A program made the translations under genes and the position numbers. Positions 2,893 to 18,533 of a DNA stretch of 64,000 nucleotides are shown here, piece by piece. Source of the stretch: Nostoc sp. DedSLP01 (GTDB lineage: Bacteria; Cyanobacteriota; Cyanobacteriia; Cyanobacteriales; Nostocaceae). The notes beneath the pieces are model-generated. The model saw only the letters and a program-made list of their open reading frames with translations, was not told the origin of the DNA and did no database searches. How positions within the stretch are numbered: position 1 is the stretch's first letter; the number at the start of each line of letters is the position of its first letter. The DNA is taken from assembly GCA_034530875.2 (NCBI GenBank), contig JAVRCJ020000005.1:177805-241804 (forward strand), in the 5' to 3' direction.

Positions 2893-4374
2893 ATGTACTT
2901 GACGGCAAATCCAGTGCGGCAACTGCCCACTTTCCGCTTAAAACCACCATTTGCGAGGGAAAGTAAGGGCAGTTATCAAACATCGCAACCATTACCAGGA
3001 TGTCCATTAAAGCCTGCATCTTTGCAATTGCGGCAATATCAGCGAGAAGCTATCGCCAGCTGGTTTGCTAATAATGGTAGAGGGACGCTCAAAATGGCTA
3101 CTGGTAGTGGTAAGACTATTACGGCATTAGCGATCGCTTGTGAATTATATCAGCAGATTAATTTACAAGTGTTGTTGGTGGTGTGTCCTTATCGCCATCT
3201 TGTCACCCAATGGGCAAGAGAATGTGAAAAATTTAATTTGCAACCGATTTTAGCTTTTGAGAATTTACGCACTTGGCAAAGTCAACTTTCAGGGCAAATT
3301 TATAATCTGCGTTCTGGTTCTCAACGGTTTGTTACTGTCATCACTACAAACTCGACTTTAATTGGAGATGGGTTTCAATCTCAACTCAAATATTTTCCCG
3401 CCAAAACTTTAATTATTGGCGATGAAGCACATAATTTAGGCGCACCGAAGTTAGAAGAAAGTTTGCCGCGCCGGGTGGGGTTAAGATTAGCTTTATCTGC
3501 CACACCGGAGAGGTATTTTGATGATTTGGGTACGCAATCTTTATTTGATTATTTTGGCCCGGTTCTCCAGCCAGAGTTCGCTTTAAGGGATGCGATCGCC
3601 TGCGGTGCTTTGGTACATTATCTGTATTATCCGGTGTTGGTGGAGTTAACCGAAGCAGAAAGTATTGCTTATTTAAGGTTAACTAAAAAAATTGGGCGAT
3701 CGCTTTTATTTCGAGAACGAGAAAATGGACAAGCAGGAGATTTTGAAGACAATGAAGATTTAAAGCCTTTATTGATGCAAAGAGCAAGGTTAATTGGTGC
3801 AGCCGAAAATAAATTAAATGCTTTGCGCGATTTAATGGCAACTCGCCGCGAAACTACTCACACTCTTTTTTATTGTAGTGACGGTTCGCCAGAAACAGGA
3901 CAGCGTTCATCGCTACGCCAACTCAAAGCTGTTGCCAAAATTCTCGGAGTAGAAATAGGTTACAAAGTTAGCACCTATACGGCTCAAACTTCTTTAGAAG
4001 AAAGGGAAATATTACGCCGTCAATTTGAAAGTGGTGAATTGCAAGGTTTGGTAGCGATTCGTTGCTTAGATGAAGGTGTCGATATTCCGGCAATTAAAAC
4101 TGCGGTGATTTTATCAAGTTCTGGTAATCCCCGCCAGTTTATCCAGCGACGGGGGCGAGTTTTACGCCCTCATCCAAGTAAAGAACGTGCAACTATATTC
4201 GACATGATTGTTTTGCCACCAGATTTAGATAGAGAAACAATAGAAGTTGAACGCAATTTATTAAGAAAGGAGTTACGCCGCTTTGTTGAATTTGCCGATT
4301 TGGCTGATAATGCTGGTGAAGCCAGAATGAAATTACTGGATTTACAAAAGCGATATGGTTTATTAGATATTTAA
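2893..4374 (+). CDS. SF2 (ResIII-like) helicase, 'DNA phosphorothioation system restriction enzyme' / PbeA-like without PLD domain
   Basis: LRQYQ Q-motif, ATGSGKT, DEAH, SAT, LDEGVDIP, QRRGRVLR; dnd context. Confidence 0.85.
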   Translation: MYLTANPVRQLPTFRLKPPFARESKGSYQTSQPLPGCPLKPASLQLRQYQREAIASWFANNGRGTLKMATGSGKTITALAIACELYQQINLQVLLVVCPYRHLVTQWARECEKFNLQPILAFENLRTWQSQLSGQIYNLRSGSQRFVTVITTNSTLIGDGFQSQLKYFPAKTLIIGDEAHNLGAPKLEESLPRRVGLRLALSATPERYFDDLGTQSLFDYFGPVLQPEFALRDAIACGALVHYLYYPVLVELTEAESIAYLRLTKKIGRSLLFRERENGQAGDFEDNEDLKPLLMQRARLIGAAENKLNALRDLMATRRETTHTLFYCSDGSPETGQRSSLRQLKAVAKILGVEIGYKVSTYTAQTSLEEREILRRQFESGELQGLVAIRCLDEGVDIPAIKTAVILSSSGNPRQFIQRRGRVLRPHPSKERATIFDMIVLPPDLDRETIEVERNLLRKELRRFVEFADLADNAGEARMKLLDLQKRYGLLDI

Positions 4375-4703
4375 TAATGAATCAGATTGTATTTGTATTT
4401 TTTTGTAAAAATTTTTCTGGGTTTGTAGAAACAAGCATTAAGTATGAAATAATGAAAATATGAATTAAATTATAATGGGATATAAGCAAAATTTTTAGAG
4501 CAGCTTACATCCCATTATAATATGGTTTATTAAGACTAATTTTATCAGAAAAATATTAAAGGATAAAGCATTTTTTCAAAAAAATTCAGATTTAAATATT
4601 ATAGTTTTTCAAAATTTAAAGATAATGCTAACCGTAGCTTTACAGTGACAAATGCACCAGTAGAGAGGGTTAAAATATAGAAAAAATTATTTTAGAATCA
4701 AAG

Positions 4704-4877
4704 ATGCCACAAGAGGCGAATATCGATGATGTGCAGGAGCCAATAACCAACGCTCCACCAGAAGTACGACAAATTATTGAGCGAGTGTGGAAGCTGGAAA
4801 AAAGTAGGCTCGATCGCAAAAGTAAAGGGCATATTAACGATGATATTCTAGATATTATCAAGGAAGCAGTGCAATGA
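4704..4877 (+). CDS. 57-aa small protein coupled to the CxC ATPase (PbeB-like); missing from the ORF track
   Basis: MPQEANIDDVQEPITNAPPEVRQIIERVWKLEKSRLDRKSKGHINDDILDIIKEAVQ*; ATGA overlap with the next gene. Confidence 0.8.
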   Translation: MPQEANIDDVQEPITNAPPEVRQIIERVWKLEKSRLDRKSKGHINDDILDIIKEAVQ

Positions 4878-6946
4878 AGCTGACTTCAATTAAGCTGTGC
4901 AATTTTCGCTCGTTTTATGGTACAACGCCAGAGATGAATCTCGCTGGAGGAGAAATTCACAACACGACGATTATTCATGGTAATAACGGTGCTGGTAAAA
5001 CGAGTTTGTTGAATGCATTTACGTGGGTATTATATGAGAAATTTAGTGCGGCGTTTGCATCGACAGAACAGTTAGTAAATAAAAGAGCGATCGCCGAAGC
5101 CCAAAGAGGGCAAACTATAGAATGTTGGGTAGAAGTTGGTTGGGAACATGATGTCACCCGCTATCGAGTTAAACGTTCTTGTCGGGTTTACAAAAACGCC
5201 AGCGAAATGGAAGCAGGTAAAACTCAATTAACCATGTGGGTGAGTGGTGACGATGGCAAATGGAATTTACCGACTCAGCCACCAGAAGATATTATTAATC
5301 AGATTTTACCTGCTAGTTTACATCAATATTTTTTCTTTGACGGCGAACGAATTGAAGAGATAGTCCGTTCTGATAAAAAAGCCGAAATCGCCGAAGCAAC
5401 AAAGATTTTTTTAGGCGTGGAAATCATCGAACGTTCAATTACACATTTGAAAGGAGCTAAAAAAAGTTTAGAAACTGAATTAACAGCTATTGGGGATGCA
5501 GAAACTAAACAACTTTTACGACAACAAGAAAAAATAGAACGTGAAATTGATAGTATCACCAAACGCCAAAGTGAAATTCAGCAAGAATTAGAATATCAAC
5601 AAACCTTCAAAAAAGAGACAAGCAACCGTTTACGAGAACTCAGTGCTGCTAAAGAACTGCAAGAAAGACGGCAGAGTTTAGAATCACAAAAAGAAGCAAA
5701 CCGAGAAGAACTCAGAAAAACTAGAGACGCGCTGAAAAAAGTAATTTCAGCGCGGGGTTATACAGTATTGCTATCAGATACTACAAGCCAATTTCGCAAA
5801 ATATTTGATGATTTTAAGCAACGCGGCGAGTTAACCTCAGGAATTTCGCGGGAATTTATCAATGAATTACTGAAATCTAAACGTTGTATTTGTGGTGCAG
5901 ATTTAAAGGCAGGGACTCATCATCATAGTAATGTACAAGTCTGGCTAGAAAGAGCAGGTTCATCGACAGTAGAAGAAACTGCAATTCGTATGAGCGCCCA
6001 AGTAGATGAAATTGATAAGCAAGCAATAGCATTTTGGGAAGAAGTTGATAGAGAACAACTGAGAATCGAACAGTTAAGACAGACGATATCTCAAATTGAA
6101 AGCGAATTAGATAGTATTCAAGAACGATTACGCAAAGATGCTAACGAAGAAATTAGCAGTTTACAAAAACGCCTAGACGAAATTGAAAACAAAATTGATG
6201 AATTAAATCGAGAACAAGGTGCAAATCAGCAGCGAATTGCTCATTTAAAAACAGAAATTGATGTTTTGGTTAAACAAATTGCTAAGCAGAAATTGAATGA
6301 AGCGAAACAAGTTTTGGCGCAACGGCGTATCAATGCCACCCAAGATGCAATTGAACGGTTAACGGAAGTCAAAAATCGTCAAGAAAAACAATTTCGTCTG
6401 CAACTTGAAAAGCGAGTGCAAGAGATATTCACAGAGATTTCTGTTGCACCATATATCCCAAAAATCAGCGATAAGTATGAATTGACGCTGATAGAAAATA
6501 CAGCAGGTATCGAAGCGCCAGTTGCAGCTTCCACAGGAGAAAATCAAATTCTTAGTTTGTCCTTTATTGCCAGTATCATCGATAGAGTGCGGGAGTGGAG
6601 CGAGAAGCGAAAAATGATGATGCTTCCCGATAGCAGTACTTTCCCAATTGTCATGGATTCGCCATTTGGAAGTTTAGATGAAATTTCACGGCGACACATT
6701 GCTAAGACAATTCCTAAATTAGCCAATCAATTAATAGTGTTAGTCACTAAGACTCAATGGCGTGGTGAAGTAGAAGAAGAAATCACAGACAGAATTGGTA
6801 GAGAATACGTGCTGACTTATTATTCATCAAAGCCACATTGCGAGCAAGATTATATTGAATTGGGTGGTGAAAGATATCCTTTAGTGCGGCAAAGTCCTAA
6901 TGAATTTGAGTATACCGAGATTATTGAAGTGGAACGCGATCGCTAA
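4874..6946 (+). CDS. Rad50/SMC-like ABC ATPase with CxC hook (PbeC-like, DndD paralog)
   Basis: Walker A GNNGAGKT, FFFDGE, long coiled coil with central CICG, STGE signature, IVMDSPFGSLD. Confidence 0.88.
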   Translation: MKLTSIKLCNFRSFYGTTPEMNLAGGEIHNTTIIHGNNGAGKTSLLNAFTWVLYEKFSAAFASTEQLVNKRAIAEAQRGQTIECWVEVGWEHDVTRYRVKRSCRVYKNASEMEAGKTQLTMWVSGDDGKWNLPTQPPEDIINQILPASLHQYFFFDGERIEEIVRSDKKAEIAEATKIFLGVEIIERSITHLKGAKKSLETELTAIGDAETKQLLRQQEKIEREIDSITKRQSEIQQELEYQQTFKKETSNRLRELSAAKELQERRQSLESQKEANREELRKTRDALKKVISARGYTVLLSDTTSQFRKIFDDFKQRGELTSGISREFINELLKSKRCICGADLKAGTHHHSNVQVWLERAGSSTVEETAIRMSAQVDEIDKQAIAFWEEVDREQLRIEQLRQTISQIESELDSIQERLRKDANEEISSLQKRLDEIENKIDELNREQGANQQRIAHLKTEIDVLVKQIAKQKLNEAKQVLAQRRINATQDAIERLTEVKNRQEKQFRLQLEKRVQEIFTEISVAPYIPKISDKYELTLIENTAGIEAPVAASTGENQILSLSFIASIIDRVREWSEKRKMMMLPDSSTFPIVMDSPFGSLDEISRRHIAKTIPKLANQLIVLVTKTQWRGEVEEEITDRIGREYVLTYYSSKPHCEQDYIELGGERYPLVRQSPNEFEYTEIIEVERDR

Positions 6947-7008
6947 ATTAATTGCATACAATTATATTTAATATTATTTGTCGCTTTGTGTGGGCGATCG
7001 CCATCATC

Positions 7009-7617
7009 ATGAGCAGAGCCAAAATTCTCGATCCATCCGAGATTTATACCTTCGCCAGCTATGCCGAATTAGCCTACGATAGTGCCGATATTCTAGCTGA
7101 ATTTGGTGTTACTCTCAACAATAGTTCACTCCAACTTCCACAACAGTTACCAATAGATCCCGAACCACTGAGAACAGAACTACAAGAAAATCTCACTTTG
7201 GTAGATCCTGTTTCCGAAATAGCTAGACGCGAAGCACTAATCTTTCCGATTCTCAAAACAGTTTGCAAGTTCATTCAAGTACCACTCAAAATTGAATATC
7301 CCGTGCGAGTTAGCAATTGGCTCAAAGGCAGTTTTGATTATTTCATTCCTACACCACAAAACTTATTAGTAATTGAAGCTAAAAATGCGGACTTAGCAAG
7401 AGGTTTTACCCAGTTAGCAGTAGAATTAATTGCGCTCGATCGATGGACTGAATCAACAGTTCCCATGCTTTATGGTACTGTGACAACAGGAGATACCTGG
7501 AAATTTGGAATTTTTCACCGCCAAGAAAAAATAATTGACAAAGATATTAATACATACGCCGTTCCTAGCGATTTGAATTTGGTGCTTTCTGCTCTGTTTG
7601 GTATTAGTTTGAGCTAG
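7009..7617 (+). CDS. Hypothetical protein, probable PD-(D/E)XK (HsdR_N-like) nuclease fold
   Basis: GSFDY...VIEAK...QL...LYGTVTTGDTWKF pattern. Confidence 0.65.
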   Translation: MSRAKILDPSEIYTFASYAELAYDSADILAEFGVTLNNSSLQLPQQLPIDPEPLRTELQENLTLVDPVSEIARREALIFPILKTVCKFIQVPLKIEYPVRVSNWLKGSFDYFIPTPQNLLVIEAKNADLARGFTQLAVELIALDRWTESTVPMLYGTVTTGDTWKFGIFHRQEKIIDKDINTYAVPSDLNLVLSALFGISLS

Positions 7618-7728
7618 GTGAGGTGTTTTAAGAGAAGATGTTGCATTTAACTAAAAAATTAGAATAACAGTTGACTAAAAGTGAGAAAATAGAAGCATAA
7701 ATTAGCTGGAATTTTCAGGATTTAGATT

Positions 7729-8070
7729 ATGGGAATTAAGGAATTATTACTACCATTTCGGGAAGAGATATTAAAAATTGCCGCTAAATATGGCGCATAT
7801 AACGTGCGGGTGTTTGGTTCAGTTGCTAGAGGAGAAGCAAGATCTGATAGTGATGTAGATTTTTTGGTAGAACTTGAACCGGGACGTAATTTGTTAGACC
7901 GTATTGCTTTAATGCAAGATTTGGAGGAGTTGCTAAACCGTAAAGTTGATGTAGCCAAGCCTAATAATTTACATGAATTAATTAGGGAAAAAGTGTTAAG
8001 TGAAGCTGTAACACTACGAGAGAATAAAAGCGTTATTTACTGGATATTGCAGAATGTATTGAGAGGATAG
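7729..8070 (+). CDS. Minimal nucleotidyltransferase (MNT) antitoxin with read-through C-terminal extension
   Basis: [12 protein letters not shown] motif; the expected stop after EAVTL is CGA (8017-8019). Confidence 0.85.
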
Positions 8071-8354
8071 AAGAATACACCCGTGATGGTAGAGAGGCTT
8101 TTATCCAAACAAAGATGATTCAGGATGCTGTGGTCAGAAATTTTGAGATTATTGGTGAAGCAACTAAAAGAATATCTCAGGATTTAAGGCAAACTTATCC
8201 TGATGTGCAATGGAAACGTATAGCTGGATTTAGAGATGTGCTAATTCACGACTATCTACGAGTTGATTATGATGATGTTTGGGGAATTATTGAGCGTGAT
8301 TTACCAGCTTTGAAAGCAAATATTCAGATGATTTTAAAAGATTTAGGTATGTAG
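8016..8354 (+). pseudogene. HEPN (DUF86) RNase toxin, 5' end damaged
   Basis: Frame reads [51 protein letters not shown]; start codon lost and early stop. Confidence 0.8.
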
Positions 8355-8422
8355 CGCAAAAAGCTTGTAGGCATCGCTTATAGCTTTCGGTTAATATAGC
8401 TACACAGTAGATATTAAAGTCA

Positions 8423-8893
8423 ATGGCTGCAAATAGAATCAAGGTTGCTAAAGATAAAGCTGAGTTAGTGAAATCCTTAGTCGCATCAAAAGACACAACA
8501 GGGCCTTTTCAAACTTATGTAGAAGTGATGGTATTTGCTGCTGCTTTAGGCGTTAGATATAAAAAGCGTATACCTTTAGGCGAAACTACAAAAAGAGAAC
8601 CTTCTCCCATTCCACAAGAAAACTTTGTCTCGTTGGGACATGAGCTAATAATTAAATTATTGGGAATTAATGAAACACAAGATATAGAAATTATTTCTTC
8701 GCAACAAGAAGAATATGAAGATAAACGCACCCAAATTTTTGAAGAATACGCCAATGGAGGTCTAGAAATTTTACAAACCGAATTACGCGGAGCCGTAGAT
8801 TATTCAGAGCGTATTCTTTTATTCTTAATTGCAGAAAAAGATAATAAAGAATCGATAGATGAAGAATTTGACCTGAGCAGATTTTTAAGTTAA
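8423..8893 (+). CDS. DNA phosphorothioation-associated protein 4 (PbeD-like)
   Basis: RIKVAKDKAELV..GPFQTY..FAAALG..FEEYANGGL pattern; dnd context. Confidence 0.8.
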   Translation: MAANRIKVAKDKAELVKSLVASKDTTGPFQTYVEVMVFAAALGVRYKKRIPLGETTKREPSPIPQENFVSLGHELIIKLLGINETQDIEIISSQQEEYEDKRTQIFEEYANGGLEILQTELRGAVDYSERILLFLIAEKDNKESIDEEFDLSRFLS

Positions 8894-8917
8894 TTTTTAA
8901 GACTCATTTAAAGAATT

Positions 8918-9859
8918 ATGAAAACATTAGATTATTACTATAAATCTTTTTCTCAATTAAATGTAAGTAGTAGCAGTAAGCGTGGTAATGCTCACTATAA
9001 ACCAATATTGGTTTTAACTGTAATTGATTTGATAACACGAGGACTTATTAATGATAATCAAATTCCAGTCTCAGAAGAATTAATTGATACATTTGAGAGA
9101 TACTGGAGTATTTTAGGCTCTAAATCTTATAAAGGTGGTTTGCATTATCCATTCTTACATCTACAAAGTGATAGTTTTTGGCACTTAATATTTAAACCAG
9201 AGTTTAAGGGACTACAGCCAAAAACCACTAACAAGTTGAAAGAAGCTGTTGAATATGCTTATCTTGATGATGAACTATTTAATTTTTTACAAGATGAATC
9301 TTCCAGACAAGAATTAATTGATTCACTCGTAACAACTTTTTTTCAGGAACAGCAAGACGAATTTGAAGAGATTTTGCAAATTAACCGATCTTTTCAAGAA
9401 GATGACTTAGCTACAGAGAAATTAGCTGCCTCGACTAACTTAGATAATAATCCAAGGTGGGGTATTAGAAAGGCAGTGATTAGAAATGCTTTTTTTAGAA
9501 AAACTATCGTTCGTGTATATGATTCCAAATGTGCTTTTTGTGGCATTAGAGTAACTAAAGGTGCAAATCAAAATATTGTAGATGGCGCACACATCAAGCC
9601 TTTTGCACAATTCTATGACAGCAGAATCAATAATGGTATTGCTATTTGCAAAAATCACCATTGGGCTTTTGACCGTGGTTGGTTTACTGCTGATGAGCAG
9701 TATAAAATTATTGTTAGTAAAGAATTAGAAGAAATATCTCCTTACACTAAACGTATGAAAGATTTTCATGGCGAAAGCTTACTGTTGCCAAATAAAGAGC
9801 AATACTTTCCAGAAGTAGAAGCACTGAAATGGCATCGGCAAAATATATTTCAAAGGTAA
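8918..9859 (+). CDS. HNH endonuclease with N-terminal sulfur-binding-domain (SBD)-like region
   Basis: N-terminal AHYKPILVL and YPFLHLQSDSFW; C-terminal CAFCG..GAHIKPF..NGIAICKNHHWAFD. Confidence 0.8.
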   Translation: MKTLDYYYKSFSQLNVSSSSKRGNAHYKPILVLTVIDLITRGLINDNQIPVSEELIDTFERYWSILGSKSYKGGLHYPFLHLQSDSFWHLIFKPEFKGLQPKTTNKLKEAVEYAYLDDELFNFLQDESSRQELIDSLVTTFFQEQQDEFEEILQINRSFQEDDLATEKLAASTNLDNNPRWGIRKAVIRNAFFRKTIVRVYDSKCAFCGIRVTKGANQNIVDGAHIKPFAQFYDSRINNGIAICKNHHWAFDRGWFTADEQYKIIVSKELEEISPYTKRMKDFHGESLLLPNKEQYFPEVEALKWHRQNIFQR

Positions 9860-11458
9860 TTACAACACAGGTGGAAGTCCTACTTCTTTTAGTTCCACGA
9901 ATTCACCATCAAAACCAATTGTTTTATTTTCCACAGTCCTAGCATTAGCCAAAGCCTTACGCAGTTCAGCACGTTCCATTGAATCTTCAATTCCGCCAAG
10001 GATGTAAATTAATAACTTTGTTGCTAATTCTTTTCCCGAAACCTGCACTCGCTTTTTATTAGCGTCATACAAAACCCCATACCAAAGAGACTGAGGATAT
10101 TCCATACCAGCAAAACCGCCTTGCTGGTCAAACTTTCGCAACTTCTTAAAAATACTGGTTATAGAAAAACCTTTTTTAAATACTAAAAATCCTAAAGCTT
10201 GTGCTAAAGCAACTTGCGCTACAGGACGGAAAAGTATATTTGCTTCGCCTCCACCTTTCTCAAAACTAAATCTTCGCAAAACAGGCGTATCTTCATGTTC
10301 TAAAATTTTATAACTAGGCAAATTAGCCAAATTATCAAAAAGCTTTTTAAATTCCTCAATTCCTTGCTCAATTTCTTCATTTTCTGGACGCATGGGAATT
10401 AAACCTTTTTCCACTGGTTTCCAGTGTGGGAATTTTTGACCTAAATATCGCTCAGACATATCTTGTAGTGCTTGCAGTGTCGTCAAAACTGTAGAGTTTG
10501 CTGCTACAGTTGCACTATTCCAATTAACACGCGGGTTACGATTTAAACGTTGTTCTAAAAGTGGATGAGTCACTGCAATTTTTCTAGCCACAATAGAAAA
10601 ACCATCATCTTCATTTAACTGTGCTAACTGGCCTTTAGTTAAAGGCGCAGCCATAAGGTTGACATGGACAAAAATCGACCTCACCCTTCTTCTAGCTTGG
10701 TTGCGAGTCTCTCCAGAATTTACTGCACAAATGAACTCAATACCAATTTTTTCTTTAGGTAAGCTTTGTAAATAAGCAGGATCTACTTGATACTGGTTTA
10801 TCAAATCTGACACCGTAATAAAACTATCATCAGCAGTTTTATCTTTTTTATATCGCTGGAGTTTGCCAGTTTTTATTAACTCCATCAAACCCTGAACTCC
10901 CATCAGCCGATGTTGACCATCTAGGGCATAAATGGTTACATTTTCTTCAGAAACATTGAGTAAGCCGACCTTACCATCTTTATCTAGAGGTGTAAAATCT
11001 GTAGTAGATTTTGTGGCGCGTTCTTCACTGTCCCACTCAGATGCTTTAGGGTTATCCACCCAAGGTTGATTAATTACTACTAGCACTGCTGGAAACTTAT
11101 GATTTTTTCTAGCAGCTAAATACTGAACTAAGGGCGCTTGACGCGACCAGTCAACGGGACGTTGTTGAATTTCATCAATACTATCCGCATCAATTTCGAT
11201 GTTATCTGTTTCTGGATTGTATTTTTTTTGTAGCAAAGGTAAACCAGAAGCAAAATGAACTCGGCCTGCGAACCATTCTAGGGTGACAGAACCAACATAA
11301 GCTTCACTTCCACCCATCTCAGTTTTTTGAACGAGAATTTGGTCTTTCTTTTCTAAAAATTTCTCTAGAAGTAAAGCTAGTACCTCTTTTTCCTTGTTTT
11401 CTCTCTCTAGGTACTCTCTAGCAATATCAGCAGTTAAGTCAGATGCAATGTCTCTCAT
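9860..11458 (-). CDS. dndB: DGQHR-domain (DndB-like) protein
   Basis: QRPVD, FPAVLV, LDGQHR, FVHVN motifs; divergent from dndC. Confidence 0.75.
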   Translation of the reverse strand: MRDIASDLTADIAREYLERENKEKEVLALLLEKFLEKKDQILVQKTEMGGSEAYVGSVTLEWFAGRVHFASGLPLLQKKYNPETDNIEIDADSIDEIQQRPVDWSRQAPLVQYLAARKNHKFPAVLVVINQPWVDNPKASEWDSEERATKSTTDFTPLDKDGKVGLLNVSEENVTIYALDGQHRLMGVQGLMELIKTGKLQRYKKDKTADDSFITVSDLINQYQVDPAYLQSLPKEKIGIEFICAVNSGETRNQARRRVRSIFVHVNLMAAPLTKGQLAQLNEDDGFSIVARKIAVTHPLLEQRLNRNPRVNWNSATVAANSTVLTTLQALQDMSERYLGQKFPHWKPVEKGLIPMRPENEEIEQGIEEFKKLFDNLANLPSYKILEHEDTPVLRRFSFEKGGGEANILFRPVAQVALAQALGFLVFKKGFSITSIFKKLRKFDQQGGFAGMEYPQSLWYGVLYDANKKRVQVSGKELATKLLIYILGGIEDSMERAELRKALANARTVENKTIGFDGEFVELKEVGLPPVL

Positions 11459-11612
11459 ATTAATTTTTAAAAACTTAGTCTTGTGAGGTAGCTATATTGC
11501 CCAAAAAGTTAGATACTAATACTTTAGTTTTTAAAAACTTTTTGGGAACCCGCGCATTCCATACGCTGAGGTAAAAAAGCGGTAACGCCCAAATGTCCAG
11601 AGGTAGGAAGCA

Positions 11613-13271
11613 ATGACTGAAGCACAACAACCAGAAAATAAAGGTCAGCAGACACGTACTGTAGCAGAGTTGGTAGAGTATATCCAAGTTCTTACCACTG
11701 AAATTCAAGAATTGTATTGTTTAGATGCGATACCTTGGGTTGTTGGTTATTCGGGCGGCAAGGACAGCACGGCGACTTTACAGCTTGTTTGGAATGCAAT
11801 ACTGGGACTGCCACTAGAAAAGCGAACTAAGCCAATTCATGTCATTACAACTGATACAGGTGTAGAAAATCCTTATGTAGCTGCTTGGGTACGCAACTCA
11901 TTAGAGCAAATGAAAATAGCAGCTCAAGACCAAAAGATGCCAGTGGAACCGCATTTATTACAACCAGAGATTAAACAAACATACTGGGTGGGTTTAATTG
12001 GGAAAGGCTACCCAGCACCACGTCATAAATTCCGTTGGTGTACTGGACGATTAAAAATTGACCCATCTAACCTTTTTATTCGTAATGTTATTAGAGCTAG
12101 CGGCGAAACAATTGTTTTATTAGGAACTCGCAAAACTGAAAGTGTCAATCGTGCTACTATCATGTCAAAACGTGAAGTAGGTAGAGTGCGGGAGCGTCTT
12201 AGCCCTCATCCCAGCCTTGTTAACTCATTGCTTTATACTCCTATAGAAGATTGGCGAACTGATGAAGTTTGGCTGTATTTAATGCAATGGAATAATCCTT
12301 GGGAATATAGCAATAAAGATTTATTTGCTATGTATCGAGGTGCAACAGCAGATAATGAATGTCCTTTAGTTGTTGATACTTCTACCCCTAGTTGTGGTAG
12401 CTCTCGTTTTGGATGCTGGGTCTGCACACTAGTTAATAGTGATAGGTCTATGCAAGCGATGATTCAAAATGATGAGGAAAAAGAATGGCTACAACCTTTA
12501 ATTGATATTCGTTTAGAGGAATTAGATATTGATAACGACCGTGAGAAACGAGACTTCCGCCGCATTTGGGGAGAAGTCCAACTATTTGAGCGTAACTTGG
12601 ATGGAGAAATTTCTATTGAACCAATACCAGGCCCTTACGTTAAATCTTGGCGCGAACATTTATTAAGACGACTTTTAGAAGCGCAAACAAAAATTCGTCA
12701 AACAGCACCAGAAAATATGCGCGATATTAACCTTATCTCTCTGGAAGAATTGAGCGAAATTCGCCGTATTTGGTTAGAAGAAAAACACGAGTTTGACGAT
12801 AGCTTACCCCGCATTTATCAAGAGGTCACAGGTGAAGAATTTAAAGACCCACGTCCAGGTGCAGACCTTAGCTTATTAGGTAGCGATGAATGGGCTGTGT
12901 TAGAAGAAGTCTGTGCAGATGATGAAATGCATTTAGAACTGATGGCGAAACTGTTAGACACAGAACGCCAATTTCGGAAAATGTCGCGTCGTATAGGAAT
13001 TTACGAAAGCTTGGAAAAATGCTTTACTACCAGTTCTCGTTCTAAAGATGAAGCAGTGAGAAATGCTCATCTAAAACGAGATTTGAAAACAGCAGTTGAA
13101 CAAGGTGATATTGAAAAAGTCAAACAATTAACTTTAGCAGATTTTGTTGCACCAGAGGAACAAACAACTACACCAGATACACAAATTGAGACAACAAATA
13201 CTACAAAATCTGCTGACAATGACAAGACTTGGGCAAATGTGAAATTTAAAAATAAACAGGCAAAGCCTTAA
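11613..13271 (+). CDS. dndC: DNA phosphorothioation sulfurtransferase DndC (PAPS-reductase family)
   Basis: YSGGKDS, DTGVE, RWCT, GTRKTES, SRFGCWVC. Confidence 0.95.
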   Translation: MTEAQQPENKGQQTRTVAELVEYIQVLTTEIQELYCLDAIPWVVGYSGGKDSTATLQLVWNAILGLPLEKRTKPIHVITTDTGVENPYVAAWVRNSLEQMKIAAQDQKMPVEPHLLQPEIKQTYWVGLIGKGYPAPRHKFRWCTGRLKIDPSNLFIRNVIRASGETIVLLGTRKTESVNRATIMSKREVGRVRERLSPHPSLVNSLLYTPIEDWRTDEVWLYLMQWNNPWEYSNKDLFAMYRGATADNECPLVVDTSTPSCGSSRFGCWVCTLVNSDRSMQAMIQNDEEKEWLQPLIDIRLEELDIDNDREKRDFRRIWGEVQLFERNLDGEISIEPIPGPYVKSWREHLLRRLLEAQTKIRQTAPENMRDINLISLEELSEIRRIWLEEKHEFDDSLPRIYQEVTGEEFKDPRPGADLSLLGSDEWAVLEEVCADDEMHLELMAKLLDTERQFRKMSRRIGIYESLEKCFTTSSRSKDEAVRNAHLKRDLKTAVEQGDIEKVKQLTLADFVAPEEQTTTPDTQIETTNTTKSADNDKTWANVKFKNKQAKP

Positions 13272-13513
13272 GCTTGCTCATTATCATCGTCAGCATCTCC
13301 CAAGTACAGCCTGATAAAATCTTCGGCTGCGGCGGGATTAATTTTCTTGAGTGCGTCACGAATTTCTAACAGCGTATCAGCAACAGGATCTCTAATTTCA
13401 TTCACCCAACGGTGAACATTTGGCCGTCCCGTTCCCATTGCCACTGCTAACTTGTTTTGGCTGATGCTGTATGTTTCTAACACCTGTTTGAGTGCTTTTC
13501 CTGCTTTTCCCAT
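13268..13513 (-). CDS. XRE/Cro-type HTH regulator
   Basis: MGKAGKALKQVLETYSISQNKLAVAMGTGRPNVHRW; start moved to 13513. Confidence 0.8.
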   Translation of the reverse strand: MGKAGKALKQVLETYSISQNKLAVAMGTGRPNVHRWVNEIRDPVADTLLEIRDALKKINPAAAEDFIRLYLGDADDDNEQA

Positions 13514-13550
13514 GCCTTTGATTGTGTCAAAGGCTTCTGACAGAGTAAAT

Positions 13551-13602
13551 GTTACCCATCGGTAACTAAAGGTGTAAGATAGTGTTGTTGCCAATAGGTA
13601 AC
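13551..13602. promoter_or_regulatory. Twin palindromic operators GTT(A/G)CC-N4-GGTAAC
   Basis: 13551-13566 GTTACCCATCGGTAAC and 13587-13602 GTTGCCAATAGGTAAC flank a TAAGAT -10-like hexamer between divergent genes. Confidence 0.65.
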
Positions 13603-13634
13603 AGCGCAGCTTATCAACAAACAGGTAAATTTCA

Positions 13635-13889
13635 ATGAGTACAAGCTTTCTAGCAGACACTTGTCAAACCACCACGCCGCTTGTTTCCATCAAGGATTTT
13701 ACAGAAACAACACCAGATAGAGAGTCTGTAAAAGTAGTAATTTATGGTTCTAAAAGAGGAGTTAACAACACAATCTTGACTTTATACAAACTTGGTTTCG
13801 CCCAAGTTAACGAGTGGAGTCCTTTATTACCTAGTTCTAACCCTGGTGAAGTTATGAGTATTTTAACTAGACACATTCTGACAAACTAA
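13635..13889 (+). CDS. Small conserved cyanobacterial hypothetical protein
   Basis: 84-aa ORF with IYGSKRGV..LYKLGFA..EWSPLLP..GEVMSIL. Confidence 0.7.
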   Translation: MSTSFLADTCQTTTPLVSIKDFTETTPDRESVKVVIYGSKRGVNNTILTLYKLGFAQVNEWSPLLPSSNPGEVMSILTRHILTN

Positions 13890-13930
13890 TTAGTGGTTCA
13901 TCGCATTAATTTTAAGAAGTGGGAGTGGTC

Positions 13931-13963
13931 AGATCCCTGACTTGTTGAAGAAGTCGGGGATCT
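13931..13963. repeat. Palindromic dispersed repeat / possible terminator
   Basis: AGATCCCTGACTT...AAGTCGGGGATCT. Confidence 0.65.
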
Positions 13964-14002
13964 CGTAGCCCATCTCGACCTATATTTCATCTATAACGAC
14001 CA

Positions 14003-15988
14003 ATGATATTTCTAGAACTCGTATTACAAAATTTTGGCCCTTACTCAGGCAGACAAGTAATCAATCTTGACCCAAGAACTGAAGAAAATCCTCGCCCAAT
14101 TCTCTTATTAGGCGGTATGAATGGCGGCGGTAAAACTACTCTCATGGATGCTATTCGTCTTGCCCTATATGGACAACGCGCCCAATGCTCAACGCGTGGA
14201 AATTTGAGCTATAGTGATTTTTTAAATCAATGTGTTAATAGTAAAGCTAATCCTGCTGAAAAGACGCGAGTTGAGTTACTATTTGAACACATTGAAGAGG
14301 ATAAGCCAATAAAATATCGTATTGTTAGAACTTGGGAAAAAAATCCTAAAGATGGTAAAGATGCTCTAGGAATTTTAGGCGATGACGATACTTGGCCTGT
14401 TGAATCTTTGGTGAATACTTGGGATGACTATATAGAAAATCTACTGCCTTTAGGGATTTCTAATTTATTTTTATTTGATGGCGAACAAGTTAAAGAATTG
14501 GCAGAACAAGAAACACCACCACAACTTGTTATTGAAGCTATTCGCGGACTATTAGGGCTAGAGTTGGCAGACAAATTAGCACTTGATTTGGAGGTTTTAG
14601 TCAACCGCAAGCGTAGAGAAATGGCTGATACTAAAGATTTAGCCAACCTAGAAGAAATTGAAAAAAGGTTATTACAACAGCAAGAAGATTATCAAGAGGT
14701 AGAACAAAAATTAGTTAGTTTCAAAAATCAAATTGAAGAATTAGAGGCTATTCAACGAGAAGCCTTAGATAAATTTGTATCTGAAGGTGGTAAAATCGCT
14801 GGAGAACGCAGTCAGTTAGAAGAAAAACAAAAAGAAAAAACTACTGCATTAGAAACAATTCGGCAGTCGTTGTGTGAATTAGCTGCTGATATTTTGCCTT
14901 TAGCCTTAATTCCTAATTTATTAAGTCAGGTAGAAGTACAGGGAGCAAATGAATTTCGCAATCAGCAGGTGCAACTTGCCAGAGATGTTTTGCTTGAGCG
15001 AGATAAACGCTTACTTGAATGGCTAAGTCAGTTAGCGATCGCCTCAACACAAATGGACAAAATTCAATCATTTTTAGCTGAGGATGTTGATAATTTATAT
15101 GCAAGTTCGCTCCAAGCTGAAGTACCTTGGTTATTAGCTGACGAGGAAAGTTTGAGTCAACTAGATAATGTGAGATATCATTTACAAAATGCTCGTAATT
15201 TAGCAAAACAGCAGTTAGGTAATCTCAGGAATCTAGAAGAGGAAATTATTACGTTAGAAAGACAAGTGCAGACAGCCGCAGAACCAGAAGCTTATCAAAT
15301 ATTGCGGGATGCTGTGGACGCAGCACAAAATGAAGTTGTACAAGCTAAAGCAAATTACGAAACAACTCGCCAAAGATTAGCAGTATTAACAGATGCAATT
15401 GATATAACTAAAAAAGAATTAAAAGATTATACTGATAAAAATATAGACCATAAAAATAGGGAACATATCATTACCTCAGCCTCTAAAGTTCAAGAAACAC
15501 TTAAGGTTTTTCGAGAAAAATTAACACTGCGAAAACTCAATAAATTAGAGGAAGAAGTGAAGAATTGTTTCCTCTATCTACTGCATAAATCGGATTTAGT
15601 ATTTCGTATTGCTATTGATACTAAAACCTTTGCCTTATCTTTATTCGATTTCGATGGGAAACCAGTTCCCAAACATCGCCTTTCGGCTGGTGAAAAACAA
15701 CTTCTGGCGATCGCCTTTCTCTGGGGACTTGCCAAAGTCTCTGGCCTGCGCTTACCCGTAGCCATCGACACGCCTCTTGGCAGACTCGACTCTTCCCACC
15801 GGAACAACCTAGTAGAAAAATACTTCCCTGCCGCTAGCCATCAAGTAATTCTGCTTTCTACTGATACTGAAATTGGTAAAAAGGAAGTGGAAACATTAAG
15901 GAAAAATGAAGCGATCGCTCGTGAATATCTCCTCAAATACGACTCCGCTACCCGCCAAACAACTATACAAGCAGGCTATTTTTGGTAA
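14003..15988 (+). CDS. dndD: DNA sulfur modification ATPase DndD
   Basis: GMNGGGKTT, FLFDGE, coiled coil, LSAGEKQ, IDTPLGRLDS, LLSTDTEI. Confidence 0.95.
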   Translation: MIFLELVLQNFGPYSGRQVINLDPRTEENPRPILLLGGMNGGGKTTLMDAIRLALYGQRAQCSTRGNLSYSDFLNQCVNSKANPAEKTRVELLFEHIEEDKPIKYRIVRTWEKNPKDGKDALGILGDDDTWPVESLVNTWDDYIENLLPLGISNLFLFDGEQVKELAEQETPPQLVIEAIRGLLGLELADKLALDLEVLVNRKRREMADTKDLANLEEIEKRLLQQQEDYQEVEQKLVSFKNQIEELEAIQREALDKFVSEGGKIAGERSQLEEKQKEKTTALETIRQSLCELAADILPLALIPNLLSQVEVQGANEFRNQQVQLARDVLLERDKRLLEWLSQLAIASTQMDKIQSFLAEDVDNLYASSLQAEVPWLLADEESLSQLDNVRYHLQNARNLAKQQLGNLRNLEEEIITLERQVQTAAEPEAYQILRDAVDAAQNEVVQAKANYETTRQRLAVLTDAIDITKKELKDYTDKNIDHKNREHIITSASKVQETLKVFREKLTLRKLNKLEEEVKNCFLYLLHKSDLVFRIAIDTKTFALSLFDFDGKPVPKHRLSAGEKQLLAIAFLWGLAKVSGLRLPVAIDTPLGRLDSSHRNNLVEKYFPAASHQVILLSTDTEIGKKEVETLRKNEAIAREYLLKYDSATRQTTIQAGYFW

Positions 15989-16019
15989 TTCGTAATTCGT
16001 AATTCGTAATTCGTAATTA
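15985..16019. repeat. (GTAATTC)n heptamer array
   Basis: Four perfect units plus one variant; contains the dndD stop and the stop of the four-helix gene. Confidence 0.9.
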
Positions 16020-16373
16020 TTTGGCTTTGAGTCGTTTGGTGGAAGCAACTAGAATTTTGCCAATTTCGTTTGCTTCTTGAAGGAGTCCTTGAAATTTGTG
16101 TCTATCTACTAGTTCGGATTCCATTAATATTTCTAACCAGTATTGTGTTTCTCTTGCTTCTTTTAAAGCAATTTCTAATTTATTGATAAAATCTTTACTA
16201 GATTGGGCAGACTGTGATTCTCGGACATTTGCACCAATCGAAGTACCGGAACGCAGTAATTGTTTAGACAGGATTCGATGAACTCCAGGTTTTTCATCTA
16301 AAAAGCAACAAGCTTTAACAATTCTTACCGCAAAATTTTTTGTTCTGTCAGTAATACTACTATTAGTTCCCAT
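16017..16373 (-). CDS. Four-helix-bundle protein (23S rRNA IVP / bAvd-like family)
   Basis: QLLRSGTSIGANVRES..SSKDFINKLEIALKEARETQYWL. Confidence 0.9.
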   Translation of the reverse strand: MGTNSSITDRTKNFAVRIVKACCFLDEKPGVHRILSKQLLRSGTSIGANVRESQSAQSSKDFINKLEIALKEARETQYWLEILMESELVDRHKFQGLLQEANEIGKILVASTKRLKAK

Positions 16374-16443
16374 ATTTTTCTTTTAAATCATAATATCTAT
16401 GCTTCCCACATCTAAAACAAAAACTAGAATCTCAGCCTAAACC

Positions 16444-16490
16444 AATTACGAATCACGAATTACAAATTACGAATTACGAATTACGAATTA
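16444..16490. repeat. (AATTACG)n heptamer array, inverted relative to 15985-16019
   Basis: Six units plus a partial one, ending 1 nt before the dndE ATG. Confidence 0.9.
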
Positions 16491-16491
16491 T

Positions 16492-16878
16492 ATGGAATCG
16501 CCAATCGAAAGAATAAAACTTTCCCAAACAGCCAAAGACCAACTTCTCAAACTCAGACGCACTACCAAAATAGACCAATGGAATATCCTCTGTCGTTGGG
16601 CATTTTGTCGTTCCCTCGCAGAACCAACTCCACCCTCGCCCGTACCAATTCCCCAAGATAGCAACGTCGAAATGACTTGGCGCGTCTTTGGCGGCGAAAT
16701 GTCCGATATTCTCCTCCTCGCCCTCAAACAACGCTGTCACAATGACGGCTATGACACTGACAAAGAAACCCTCGCCACCCAATTCCGCCTGCATTTGCAT
16801 CGCGGTATCGGGTACTTAGCAGGCGATCAAAATATCAAGAAAATTGAAGATTTAATAGAACTAGCTATCAAAGATTGA
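16492..16878 (+). CDS. dndE: DNA sulfur modification protein DndE
   Basis: IKLSQTAKDQLLKL..WNILCRWAFCRSL..FRLHLHRGIGYL. Confidence 0.95.
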   Translation: MESPIERIKLSQTAKDQLLKLRRTTKIDQWNILCRWAFCRSLAEPTPPSPVPIPQDSNVEMTWRVFGGEMSDILLLALKQRCHNDGYDTDKETLATQFRLHLHRGIGYLAGDQNIKKIEDLIELAIKD

Positions 16879-16908
16879 AAGGATATTAGTTAACTGTTAA
16901 CCGTGCCA

Positions 16909-17052
16909 ATTTTAGATTTTAGATTTTAGATTATTTCAGTTCATGCCCTGCCCTTTGTGGGCAGAACAATCCAAAATCCAAAATTTAAAATCCTCAAACC
17001 CACACCCAGAGTGGTCTGCTTCAATCCAAAATCCAAAATTTAAAATCCAAAA
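16909..17052. repeat. Heptamer arrays (ATTTTAG / AATCCAA) in opposite orientations
   Basis: Tandem units between dndE and the methyltransferase. Confidence 0.65.
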
Positions 17053-17075
17053 TCGATTGACTGTTAACTGATATT

Positions 17076-18533
17076 ATGCCTGAAGCATTAGAAATCGATC
17101 GCCATCGAGCTGCGATCGCTCGCAATGATATCTCCCGCCCCGTGCGATTGGCAATAGAATGGGCAATTCTGCATCAAGACACCACTTTTTTTGACTACGG
17201 TTGCGGCTACGGTGGTGATGTGCAGCGAGTAGCAAACTTGGGCTACACCAGCGCAGGCTGGGATCCTTACTACTATCCTGATGTCCCACGCACTCCCGCC
17301 GATGTCGTCAATTTGGGCTACGTTCTCAACGTTATCGAAGATGCAGAGGAACGCCGTCAAAGCCTCATCCAAGCTTGGGAACTCACGCAGCAAGTTTTAA
17401 TTGTCGCAGCTCAAGTTTTAGTTAATGCTCCCAGTAAAACTCAGGTGGCTTACAACGATGGCATTGTCACCCGTCGCAACACTTTTCAGAAATATTACGA
17501 ACAAGAAGAACTTAAAACATACATTGATGAAGTGCTCAATGTGGATGCGGTGCCCGTAGCGTTGGGTGTGTACTTTGTTTTTCGAGATGAAGCTCAAAAA
17601 GAAAGTTACAAAGCTATCCGCTTCTTTTCTACTTCTTCTACACCGCGAGTCCGTATTCCTACCAAGCGGTTTGAAGATTACCAAGAACAACTGCAACCAC
17701 TCATGGCTTTTTTTACCAAGCGCGGTAGGTTGCCTGTAAAAGGCGAATTGGAAAACGAACAAGAATTACTCAAGGAATTTGGTAACTTCCGCCGTGCCTT
17801 TGGCGTAGTTTTACAAGCTACCGATGAAGCAGAATGGGATGCGATCGCCTATCGTCGTTCTCTAGATATCCAAGTATATCTCGCCCTCACCCACTTCGAT
17901 CGCCGCCCTGCATGGCAGAAGCTATCGCCCGAAATGCGCCACGACATCAAAGCCTTTTTTAGTAGCTACGAAGAAGCCTGCCAAGTCGCCGACCAAAAAC
18001 TTTTCAGCTTAGGCAAAACTGGGGTGATTCAAACTGCTTGTGAAAAAAGCAAAATTGGTAAACGTACGCGCGGTGCCCTTTACGTGCATGTTTCGGCGCT
18101 TGCAGCACTCGATCCTTTGCTGCGAATTTACGAGGGCTGCGCTAGCCGCACTATTGGGCGTGTAGATGGAGCCACGTTGATAAAATATCACATTGATAAA
18201 CCGCAAATATCCTATCTTTTTTACCCAGAATTTGATACTGACCCCCATCCAGCTTTACAAGCAAGTATAGGTATTGACTTAAAAACCCTAGCTGTTACTC
18301 ACCGAGAATATGAAACTAGAGCAAATCCACCAATTTTGCACCGGAAAGAAACATTTGTTACTAGTACATACCCGCGTTACGAAGAATTTGTTAAACTCAC
18401 CCAACAAGAAGAGGAATTAGGATTGCTCAAAGGCAAAAGCGATATCGGCACTCGTGATGGTTGGGAAAAATGCCTTGCCGCACACAAAGTAGAAATCAGA
18501 GGGCATGAGGTTTATTCAATTAAGGAAAATTAA
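17076..18533 (+). CDS. DNA phosphorothioation-associated putative SAM methyltransferase
   Basis: FDYGCGYGGD, VNLGYVLNVIED, NTFQKYY, NPPILHRKE; follows dndE. Confidence 0.88.
   Translation: MPEALEIDRHRAAIARNDISRPVRLAIEWAILHQDTTFFDYGCGYGGDVQRVANLGYTSAGWDPYYYPDVPRTPADVVNLGYVLNVIEDAEERRQSLIQAWELTQQVLIVAAQVLVNAPSKTQVAYNDGIVTRRNTFQKYYEQEELKTYIDEVLNVDAVPVALGVYFVFRDEAQKESYKAIRFFSTSSTPRVRIPTKRFEDYQEQLQPLMAFFTKRGRLPVKGELENEQELLKEFGNFRRAFGVVLQATDEAEWDAIAYRRSLDIQVYLALTHFDRRPAWQKLSPEMRHDIKAFFSSYEEACQVADQKLFSLGKTGVIQTACEKSKIGKRTRGALYVHVSALAALDPLLRIYEGCASRTIGRVDGATLIKYHIDKPQISYLFYPEFDTDPHPALQASIGIDLKTLAVTHREYETRANPPILHRKETFVTSTYPRYEEFVKLTQQEEELGLLKGKSDIGTRDGWEKCLAAHKVEIRGHEVYSIKEN

Follow-up and report, generated by a model that had tools for sequence, protein, structure and literature searches.

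PbeABCD-like genes without the PLD nuclease domain across an order of cyanobacteria, and matched PbeD and DndC alleles within Nostoc

In haloarchaea, PbeABCD halts the replication of viruses while the viral DNA remains intact, and a pbeA deletion still retains low protection (PMC6459918). In the PbeABCD and DndCDEA system of Haloterrigena jeotgali A29 a helicase, a small protein, an ATPase and a protein of 150 amino acids (aa) lie beside dndCDE (PMC6459918), and a like set of genes occupies 2893-18533 of the window analysed here, a stretch of 64,000 nucleotides from Nostoc sp. DedSLP01 (GCA_034530875.2, contig JAVRCJ020000005.1, 177,805-241,804) in which all coordinates below are given. An earlier note on this DNA had proposed that the order helicase, small protein, ATPase, small protein is that of the PbeABCD arm, and this holds, as the PbeA and PbeC models match and the modelled fold of PbeD is DndE-like. 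PbeAC loci of Nostoc, Anabaena and Calothrix are already rows in the supplement of PMC6459918. The locus also resembles the system of CxC ABC-ATPase, clade-2 DndE, small protein (SP) and HKD plus superfamily 2 (SF2) helicase of PMC10853773 in its CxC hook, DndE-like PbeD and small protein, in its tandem arrangement with DndDE and in its wHTH(SBD)-HNH and HEPN neighbours. Like the vertical dnd genes of the Cyanobacteriales (PMC8569181), the genes are enriched and vertical, dndFGH are apparently absent and the operons are broken up. Membership among the Pbe/CxC systems is therefore already published, and the combination is not uncatalogued, since Pbe beside Dnd with SBD/wHTH-HNH, HEPN and methylase neighbours is found in PMC10853773 and Nostoc PbeAC loci are in the supplement of PMC6459918. 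The locus is a PbeABCD-like variant, and it is filed as a variant because one defining feature, the PLD domain, is absent.

Unlike in H. jeotgali, PbeA of Nostoc is without PLD, passenger genes separate pbeC from pbeD, the system is near-core in the order though often scattered, and PbeD is matched to DndC, a matching that does not appear in the parts of PMC6459918 covered here. Whereas the argument of PMC10853773 for cleavage was that HKD is present in 'the vast majority', the whole order of Nostoc lacks HKD, and 'cyanobacteri' has no occurrence in the main text of that paper. Also unlike in PMC10853773, the SP of Nostoc is conserved (ratio of non-synonymous to synonymous substitution, dN/dS, 0.12) and not fast-evolving, and DndE is nearly invariant while PbeD and DndC are variable. 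In PMC8569181 'pbe' does not occur and dnd is treated as modification-only, whereas here the Pbe arm was present in nearly every sampled genome with dndC. In the literature outside subscription papers no report of an order-wide nuclease-free PbeA or of PbeD-DndC allele matching was found. A Pbe arm lies beside the dnd genes, its helicase has lost the PLD domain and is under purifying selection, its parts are retained together, and its PbeD alleles are matched to those of DndC. The reading that we put on this, and that we consider evenly balanced between right and wrong, is that a nuclease-free PbeABCD reader, coupled to the specificity of the DndBCDE writer, blocks unmarked DNA without cutting it.

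The helicase gene (2893-4374) is above the TIGR04095 cut-off with 661.8 bits compared to 600, it matches PADLOC PbeA at E 6e-162, the ResIII and helicase C module is present and the helicase motifs are intact. All five PADLOC PbeA models align only from profile position 241-262 onward. There is also no space for a PLD domain upstream because lexA ends at 2764, which is 128 bases ahead of the helicase start. When the PLD domain of PbeA was used as query no match was found in this genome, although the same query rings in PLD-fused genomes, and the six Pfam PLDc_2 matches in this genome are other genes on other contigs. Profile start, upstream gap and PLD query together confirm the claim of the earlier note that the helicase carries no PLD/HKD domain. 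About 40 leader residues of the helicase resemble the old PLD-helicase linker, and the alignment is that of a clean domain loss with a linker remnant. Survival of PLD as a split gene was considered and rejected: there is no piece of it in this genome, none of 34 own-family genomes has a match at more than 50% identity, and 12 of the 34 have only distant matches to the PLD query, in other frames of 323-1430 aa.

The distribution of the helicase was examined in 300 genomes drawn from the phylum, 105 of them in the order of the window (Cyanobacteriales) and 195 outside it. The helicase was present in 92 of the 105 in-order genomes, in 37/37 of the own family and in 6/195 outside the order. As many as 88 of the 92 in-order matches are open frames of 451-553 aa, the other four being broken or cut, whereas all six out-of-order matches lie in frames of 714-745 aa. 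Five in-order genomes also hold a second helicase copy of 688-717 aa. Seven long forms, including five of the six out-of-order matches, were fetched and all have an HEK motif in the N-terminal domain; Pfam PLDc_2 matches both of the two long forms scanned, one of them below cut-off. The PLD-less helicase is thus found lineage-wide and is not a local oddity, which bears out the earlier suggestion of a cyanobacterial variant of Pbe. In the 80 best loci from species-representative genomes, which share 89-98% identity and almost all bear the name of Nostoc or a close genus, the median dN/dS of the short helicase was 0.09, that is, purifying selection, with synonymous divergence like that of argF. 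A single origin of the PLD loss was considered and set aside: the tree needs one change, but the support is 43/78. In one genome, G299 (genomes and relatives' loci bear our internal labels, G and L with three digits), a PLD-fused helicase directly follows PbeD (L138:4992-6959) and a short helicase is also present elsewhere. The fused protein is 70% identical in the PLD part and only 27% in the helicase part, and is a nuclease-bearing helicase in the accessory slot.

Retention of the parts was followed in a panel of 80 genomes, of which 71 are in-order and helicase-positive, four are PLD-fused outside the order and five are helicase-negative. In the 71 short-helicase genomes the CxC ATPase, PbeD, dndC and the methyltransferase were each found in 70, the long DGQHR protein was found in 56 and SBD-HNH in 31. 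In the five helicase-negative genomes CxC, PbeD, dndC and DGQHR were not found at all, and one has the methyltransferase and an HNH. The parts are often scattered, in several closed genomes hundreds of kb apart (e.g. G008, G077), and six genomes in 1-5 contigs (G077, G133, G161, G181, G183 and G279) retain the scattered parts with no match to SBD-HNH, long DGQHR or PbeA-type PLD. In G071 there is a compact run of SP-CxC-PbeD-DGQHR-dndCDE with no nuclease ORF (open reading frame) between, and no methyltransferase match. G297, a 4.8-Mb genome of the own family, has stops in the helicase, dndC, DGQHR and the methyltransferase and no CxC or PbeD match; this is decay of the whole system, its parts broken or lost together. 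Three of the four PLD-fused out-of-order genomes (G141, G231, G247) have no dndC match at 1e-40, and in G247 only dndC fragments lie beside the Pbe arm.

When synonymous divergence from the window was compared in loci ranked by helicase identity, for which argF was not selected, it was 0.43-0.45 in argF and the helicase and 0.8-1.0 in the downstream genes. Fifty sequences clustered into seven PbeD and seven DndC classes, which stand in near one-to-one correspondence. In 42 main-clade loci the fourfold-site distance within and between PbeD classes was 0.15 and 0.37 for dndC, while it was 0.225 and 0.222 for argF, 0.226 and 0.230 for the helicase, 0.242 and 0.244 for CxC and 0.184 and 0.192 for the intervening DGQHR gene; the contrast of PbeD itself in this test is by construction. 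The adjusted Rand index against PbeD class was 0.92 for dndC and at most 0.24 for DGQHR. On a tree of argF, lexA and helicase from 49 loci the PbeD class changes 23 times (shuffled mean 24.6), the DndC class 24 times and the two jointly 25 times, and on the DGQHR tree the numbers are 22, 22 and 23; the thresholds in this test, 0.22 and 0.12, were set once by eye. Only nine class combinations were seen in the 49 loci compared to a shuffled mean of 22 and minimum of 18. Thus, the PbeD and DndC classes ignore the species tree yet stay matched, and the gene between them does not follow. Because CxC and DGQHR are homologous flanks that would allow PbeD to be swapped by itself, and yet mismatches are rare, we infer selection for the fit of PbeD to DndC. 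In the contig of a close relative, from an independent run, the replaced stretches are only at 8547-9479 and 11873-12222, and DGQHR aligns throughout.

The class-variable patches are residues 14-39 and 53-104 of PbeD, the SBD half of HNH and residues 47-230 of DndC, which include the specificity loop of PMC12193691. According to that paper the DndC loop sets the motif, R-x-K/R corresponds to GpsGCC, and DndC 433-482 binds the DndD head. In a loop comparison with a class numbering of its own, the loop was RGK or RHK in 26/26 loci of PbeD class 3, RNQ in 14/14 of class 4, RNR in 6/6 of class 8, RMR in 2/2 of class 7 and RGK in 5/5 of class 9, and the RNQ/class 4 loci never carry HNH. No class structure was seen in DndE or the methyltransferase and little in C-terminal DndD; DndE is 87-98% identical in 30/30 Nostoc genomes. 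GGCC is the most depleted 4-mer (0.38). Cyanobacterial GGCC methylases explain this depletion equally well.

PbeC (4874-6946) scores 1186.6 bits on the PADLOC PbeC model PDLC02753, and its hook, C338-x-C340, is invariant in 17/17 aligned relatives. No sequence relative with a solved structure was found for DndC or PbeC. PbeD (8423-8893) is above the TIGR04062 cut-off, and the 156-aa protein is taken as PbeD because its model best matches two DndE structures, 7x4e (Z 8.8, root-mean-square deviation (rmsd) 3.5, 111 aligned) and 5wtu (Z 7.8, rmsd 2.9, 98 aligned), the next unrelated row being at Z 3.1. The PbeB candidate has 57 aa compared to 66 for PbeB and its position between helicase and ATPase fits, but it matches no family model scanned (NCBIfam, PADLOC, Pfam). 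A predicted complex of SP and CxC scored 0.58, with 0.00 for the best of three controls, which is a weak pass: the mark was reached by 116/157 solved pairs and 2/215 mismatched pairs, and scores at 0.60 or under include 18/157 solved pairs and both passing mismatches. The runs share at least 89% of contacts and the partner pLDDT (predicted local distance difference test) is at least 72. Homology of PbeB to the DndC tail was also tried and not upheld: Pfam Sp-DndD matches 0/16 SPs and 7/10 DndC tails, the latter below cut-off (best E 7e-5), hhalign gave probabilities of 0.6% and 4.5%, and a profile of 139 SP sequences failed to pick DndC out of 45,940 ORFs. No protein over 148 aa was among the best 150 SP representatives. 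This homology is retained as a weak lead.

The genes of the locus are as follows.

2893..4374, plus strand: PbeA-type SF2 helicase, no PLD/HKD domain (TIGR04095, PADLOC PbeA)
4704..4877, plus strand: PbeB/SP, 57 aa, overlapping the CxC start, conserved and stand-alone (by position and size)
4874..6946, plus strand: PbeC, CxC zinc-hook ABC ATPase, a DndD paralog (PADLOC PbeC, hook alignment)
6952..7617, plus strand: PD-(D/E)xK-like ORF, a passenger with 15 tblastn matches in its own genome
7729..8354, plus strand: MNT-HEPN pair, like a type VII toxin-antitoxin (TA) pair, a passenger; 5' end of HEPN degraded
8423..8893, plus strand: PbeD (Dnd-associated protein 4), 156 aa, DndE-like ribbon-helix-helix (TIGR04062, fold match)
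8918..9859, plus strand: SBD-HNH nuclease, an accessory gene in a slot of exchangeable content
9860..11458, minus strand: long DGQHR/DndB-like protein, 532 aa, between PbeD and dndC
11613..13271, plus strand: DndC, specificity loop GYPAP-RHK-FRW (NCBIfam cut-off passed)
13268..13889: HTH ORF (minus strand) and 84-aa ORF (plus strand), passengers
14003..15988, plus strand: DndD ABC ATPase (NCBIfam cut-off passed)
16017..16373, minus strand: four-helix-bundle gene, a passenger carried at 1/30 dndE loci of other Nostoc
16492..16878, plus strand: DndE (NCBIfam cut-off passed)
17076..18533, plus strand: TIGR04096 putative methyltransferase, class I SAM (S-adenosylmethionine) fold at residues 3-173, C-terminal part without known family

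Every ORF that the earlier note named is found at its coordinates in the ORF listing of the window; dndC, dndD and dndE stand, on the plus strand, and its dndB-like gene is corrected to a minus-strand gene for the 532-aa DGQHR protein. The PD-(D/E)xK-like ORF, the MNT-HEPN pair, the HTH ORF, the 84-aa ORF and the four-helix bundle were absent from it, and its label 'island' is misleading because the locus has a fixed position behind argF-lexA. The order argF-lexA-helicase-SP-CxC is constant in relatives wherever the contig reaches, and in Nostoc and several other members of the family lexA immediately precedes the helicase in the same orientation (2159-2893 in the window), so that a link to the SOS response is possible. 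In the MNT-HEPN pair (7729-8354), which was seen in 2/58 related loci, the HEPN frame has no start and an early stop, leaving a 79-aa remnant where L007 has 112 aa, while the MNT frame extends over 113 aa compared to 96 in L006. The 84-aa ORF (13635-13889) has no Pfam family and eight tblastn matches in its own genome, and teams with the HTH ORF in several loci. The gap between dndD and dndE (15988-16492) is a further variable site, with an insert of about 10 kb in a close relative; in G327 (L137) the 14 kb upstream of dndE hold housekeeping genes but not dndD. At L014:11979-14946 a deletion fuses the CxC 3' end to a truncated methyltransferase, and all genes from PbeD to dndE are gone from this locus. 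TIGR03237 and TIGR03238, dnd-associated models taken to represent DndF and DndH, had no match anywhere in the genome in a scan that had no positive control for dndFGH. Scans for promoters, for terminators and for one LexA-box-like pattern gave nothing useful at the locus, and no phage-borne close relatives of dndC or the methyltransferase were found. Four RNA runs gave contigs of up to 27 kb, and no claim of expression is made from them because they cover both strands and may be DNA carry-over.

DndC, DndD, DndE and the methyltransferase all pass their NCBIfam cut-offs, and four full-length desulfurase homologs lie elsewhere in the genome, all under the DndA cut-off. In fold the methyltransferase is most like other class I SAM enzymes (top Z 12.4, rmsd 3.3, 147 aligned), no DNA methyltransferase is among its 50 best structural matches, and it has no PADLOC or Pfam match. 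The idea in the earlier note that it adds a second mark to the DNA therefore finds no support; it is a near-core partner, often unlinked, and by its class I SAM fold a putative methyltransferase. Its C-terminal part gave only unnamed clusters under 0.9 and no named family. Most relatives outside Nostoc are frames of 611-823 aa (e.g. L087:1828-3906), usually far from dndE, and in these longer forms the C-terminal ~165 residues are repeated at the N-terminus.

Of 58 Nostoc loci that extend from CxC to DGQHR, 31 have SBD-HNH in the slot behind PbeD, and other occupants are DndB-like genes, GIY-YIG, another HNH and a methyltransferase/HATPase pair, while 20 of the 58 have no full-length nuclease there. 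Alternative cassettes are a Methyltransf_35 and HATPase pair, an AIPR protein, DndB-like with GIY-YIG and DndB-like with HNH, as in L004:15340-18000, L017:16916-18259 and L080:16959-18164. The SBD-HNH of the window (8918-9859) combines an SBD-like domain at its N-terminus (PDB 8h0l, E 2e-16) with an HNH, as in the PT-dependent enzymes EcoWI and SprMcrA (PMC7461809) and SBDHga1 (PDB 8h0l). Unlike EcoWI and SprMcrA it lies inside a dnd locus and is below the NF045808 cut-off (123.9 of 180), and where characterised enzymes show HR/HK...YP it shows YK...YP, with Tyr replacing His (YK or NK stands for HR/HK). The Uma2-like and PD-(D/E)xK families have many copies in this genome.

In the reading that we favour, DndCDE and a housekeeping cysteine desulfurase would place phosphorothioate on a short motif, predicted from the RHK loop to be of the GpsGCC type. 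By homology PbeC as an ATPase clamp, PbeD as a DndE-like reader and PbeB as a small adaptor on the ATPase would scan the DNA, and PbeD, whose match to the local DndC allele is observed, would have to fit that allele, either through recognition of the same site or through contact with DndC. On DNA without the cell's own mark the PLD-less helicase would translocate or jam, and replication would be blocked without cutting; the block is proposed because of the haloarchaeal phenotype and the missing nuclease. SBD-HNH, Uma2-like, GIY-YIG and TA genes would be exchangeable passengers.

The earlier note had instead suggested that the separate HNH may have taken over the cutting; in such a scheme helicase and ATPase would guide the SBD-HNH. 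HNH does start 24 bases after PbeD on the same strand, its SBD half (residues 1-182) shifts with PbeD class with a between-class distance of 0.37-0.65, it is limited to two of five multi-member Nostoc PbeD classes, and such SBD/wHTH-HNH proteins have been proposed as restriction components of Dnd loci (PMC10853773). However, the expected tracking of HNH presence with PLD absence fails both ways, as HNH is missing from 40/71 short-helicase genomes and present in 3/4 PLD-fused ones, and in L087 and L090 it adjoins a PLD-fused Pbe arm. This already contradicts delegation as a general rule, and HNH was rejected as a general replacement nuclease. Class-3 loci without HNH (L004, L017, L033) retain the matching loop, and the link of HNH to PbeD class could be hitch-hiking. 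Since characterised SBD-HNH enzymes cut PT-modified DNA and are seldom near dnd (PMC7461809), it is simpler to suppose that HNH acts on its own against foreign PT motifs, and we hold delegation to be very improbable. Somewhat less improbable, though still distinctly unlikely, is that the long DGQHR/DndB-like protein, with its ParB fold, replaced PLD as the effector on unmarked DNA by nucleotide depletion or as a nuclease. It is found in 34/34 own-family and 0/4 PLD-fused genomes, besides the 56/71 and 0/5 given above, with dN/dS of 0.08; DndB-type proteins have been suggested as possible effectors (PMC10853773) and ATP and GTP binding by a DndB-like protein is reported (PMC12704722). On the other hand, it was not found in 15/71 short-helicase genomes, the four PLD-fused genomes are a small and related sample, and the gene stands head-to-head with dndC like the DndB repressor; its effector role is putative.

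Several points weigh against a coupled nuclease-free reader. Defence, PT marks and expression are putative, being proposed from sequence comparison. The panel of 80 is non-random, having been picked from the distribution scan with 75/80 chosen for having the helicase, and kin in it are not independent. A Uma2-like or PD-(D/E)xK ORF lies between CxC and DGQHR in 49/58 Nostoc loci, and only 5/58 lack all the types of nuclease-like ORF that were looked for; because of these ORFs a nuclease may act in trans. The loop triplet is not class-defining, and since RGK occurs with three PbeD classes and all Nostoc loops begin with Arg, the classes may share a core motif. Only two (G147, G151) of six genomes of other family genera clearly fit a Nostoc class pair, and the other four and the scattered genomes have no class assignment, so the matching is a finding within Nostoc. 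PbeAC-DndCD co-evolution was poor (rho 0.107) in PMC6459918, where PbeD was not used. Defence genes do not usually show such near-universal, vertical retention, which suits a housekeeping role as well. The Pbe arm may thus be domesticated, serving the cell's own PT marks in maintenance, replication/repair coupling or gene regulation with little anti-phage role, and PbeD would match DndC since the proteins or their sites must fit. The single-copy, near-core distribution, survival after gene scattering, inheritance of the helicase along with argF-lexA, and the vertical dnd of the Cyanobacteriales, for which an antioxidant or epigenetic origin was argued (PMC8569181), speak for this. However, old allele classes are reshuffled across species at a fixed locus, the pattern of a conflict locus, which by our own analogy may be likened to hsd in the E. 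coli immigration control region (PMC12707154), and the helicase is dispensable, since 13/105 in-order genomes have no match. We regard the housekeeping explanation as unlikely but deserving of serious attention.

A nuclease-free reader that blocks would have a wider, more doubtful extension, which we offer tentatively. In one order, the majority of the filamentous and many of the unicellular cyanobacteria might possess a PT-reading machine that is fixed and has no nuclease, and its specificity might be reprogrammed when two separate patches, the middle of PbeD and the N-terminal half of DndC, are exchanged as a pair. This would be a writer/reader code under balancing selection by which foreign DNA would be restricted by blocking and not by cutting. 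PbeB might be the equivalent, as a protein of its own, of the DndD-docking tail of DndC, in which case PbeABCD would be a duplicated DndCDE with a helicase replacing the sulfur-transfer domain.

Whether PbeABCD cuts is disputed: its discoverers saw no cleavage (PMC6459918), cutting was argued since most PbeA carry HKD (PMC10853773), and the event is called 'obscure' in a 2025 review (PMC12707154). An order that has dropped the nuclease while keeping the machine is a natural test of this question. The matched PbeD and DndC classes offer ready swap experiments and are comparative evidence of reader-writer coupling, where earlier work on PbeAC found the two decoupled, and they suggest that specificity resides in residues 53-104 of PbeD. 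Finally, the 'solo' dnd systems of cyanobacteria are recast, which could matter for DNA transfer into Nostoc strains.

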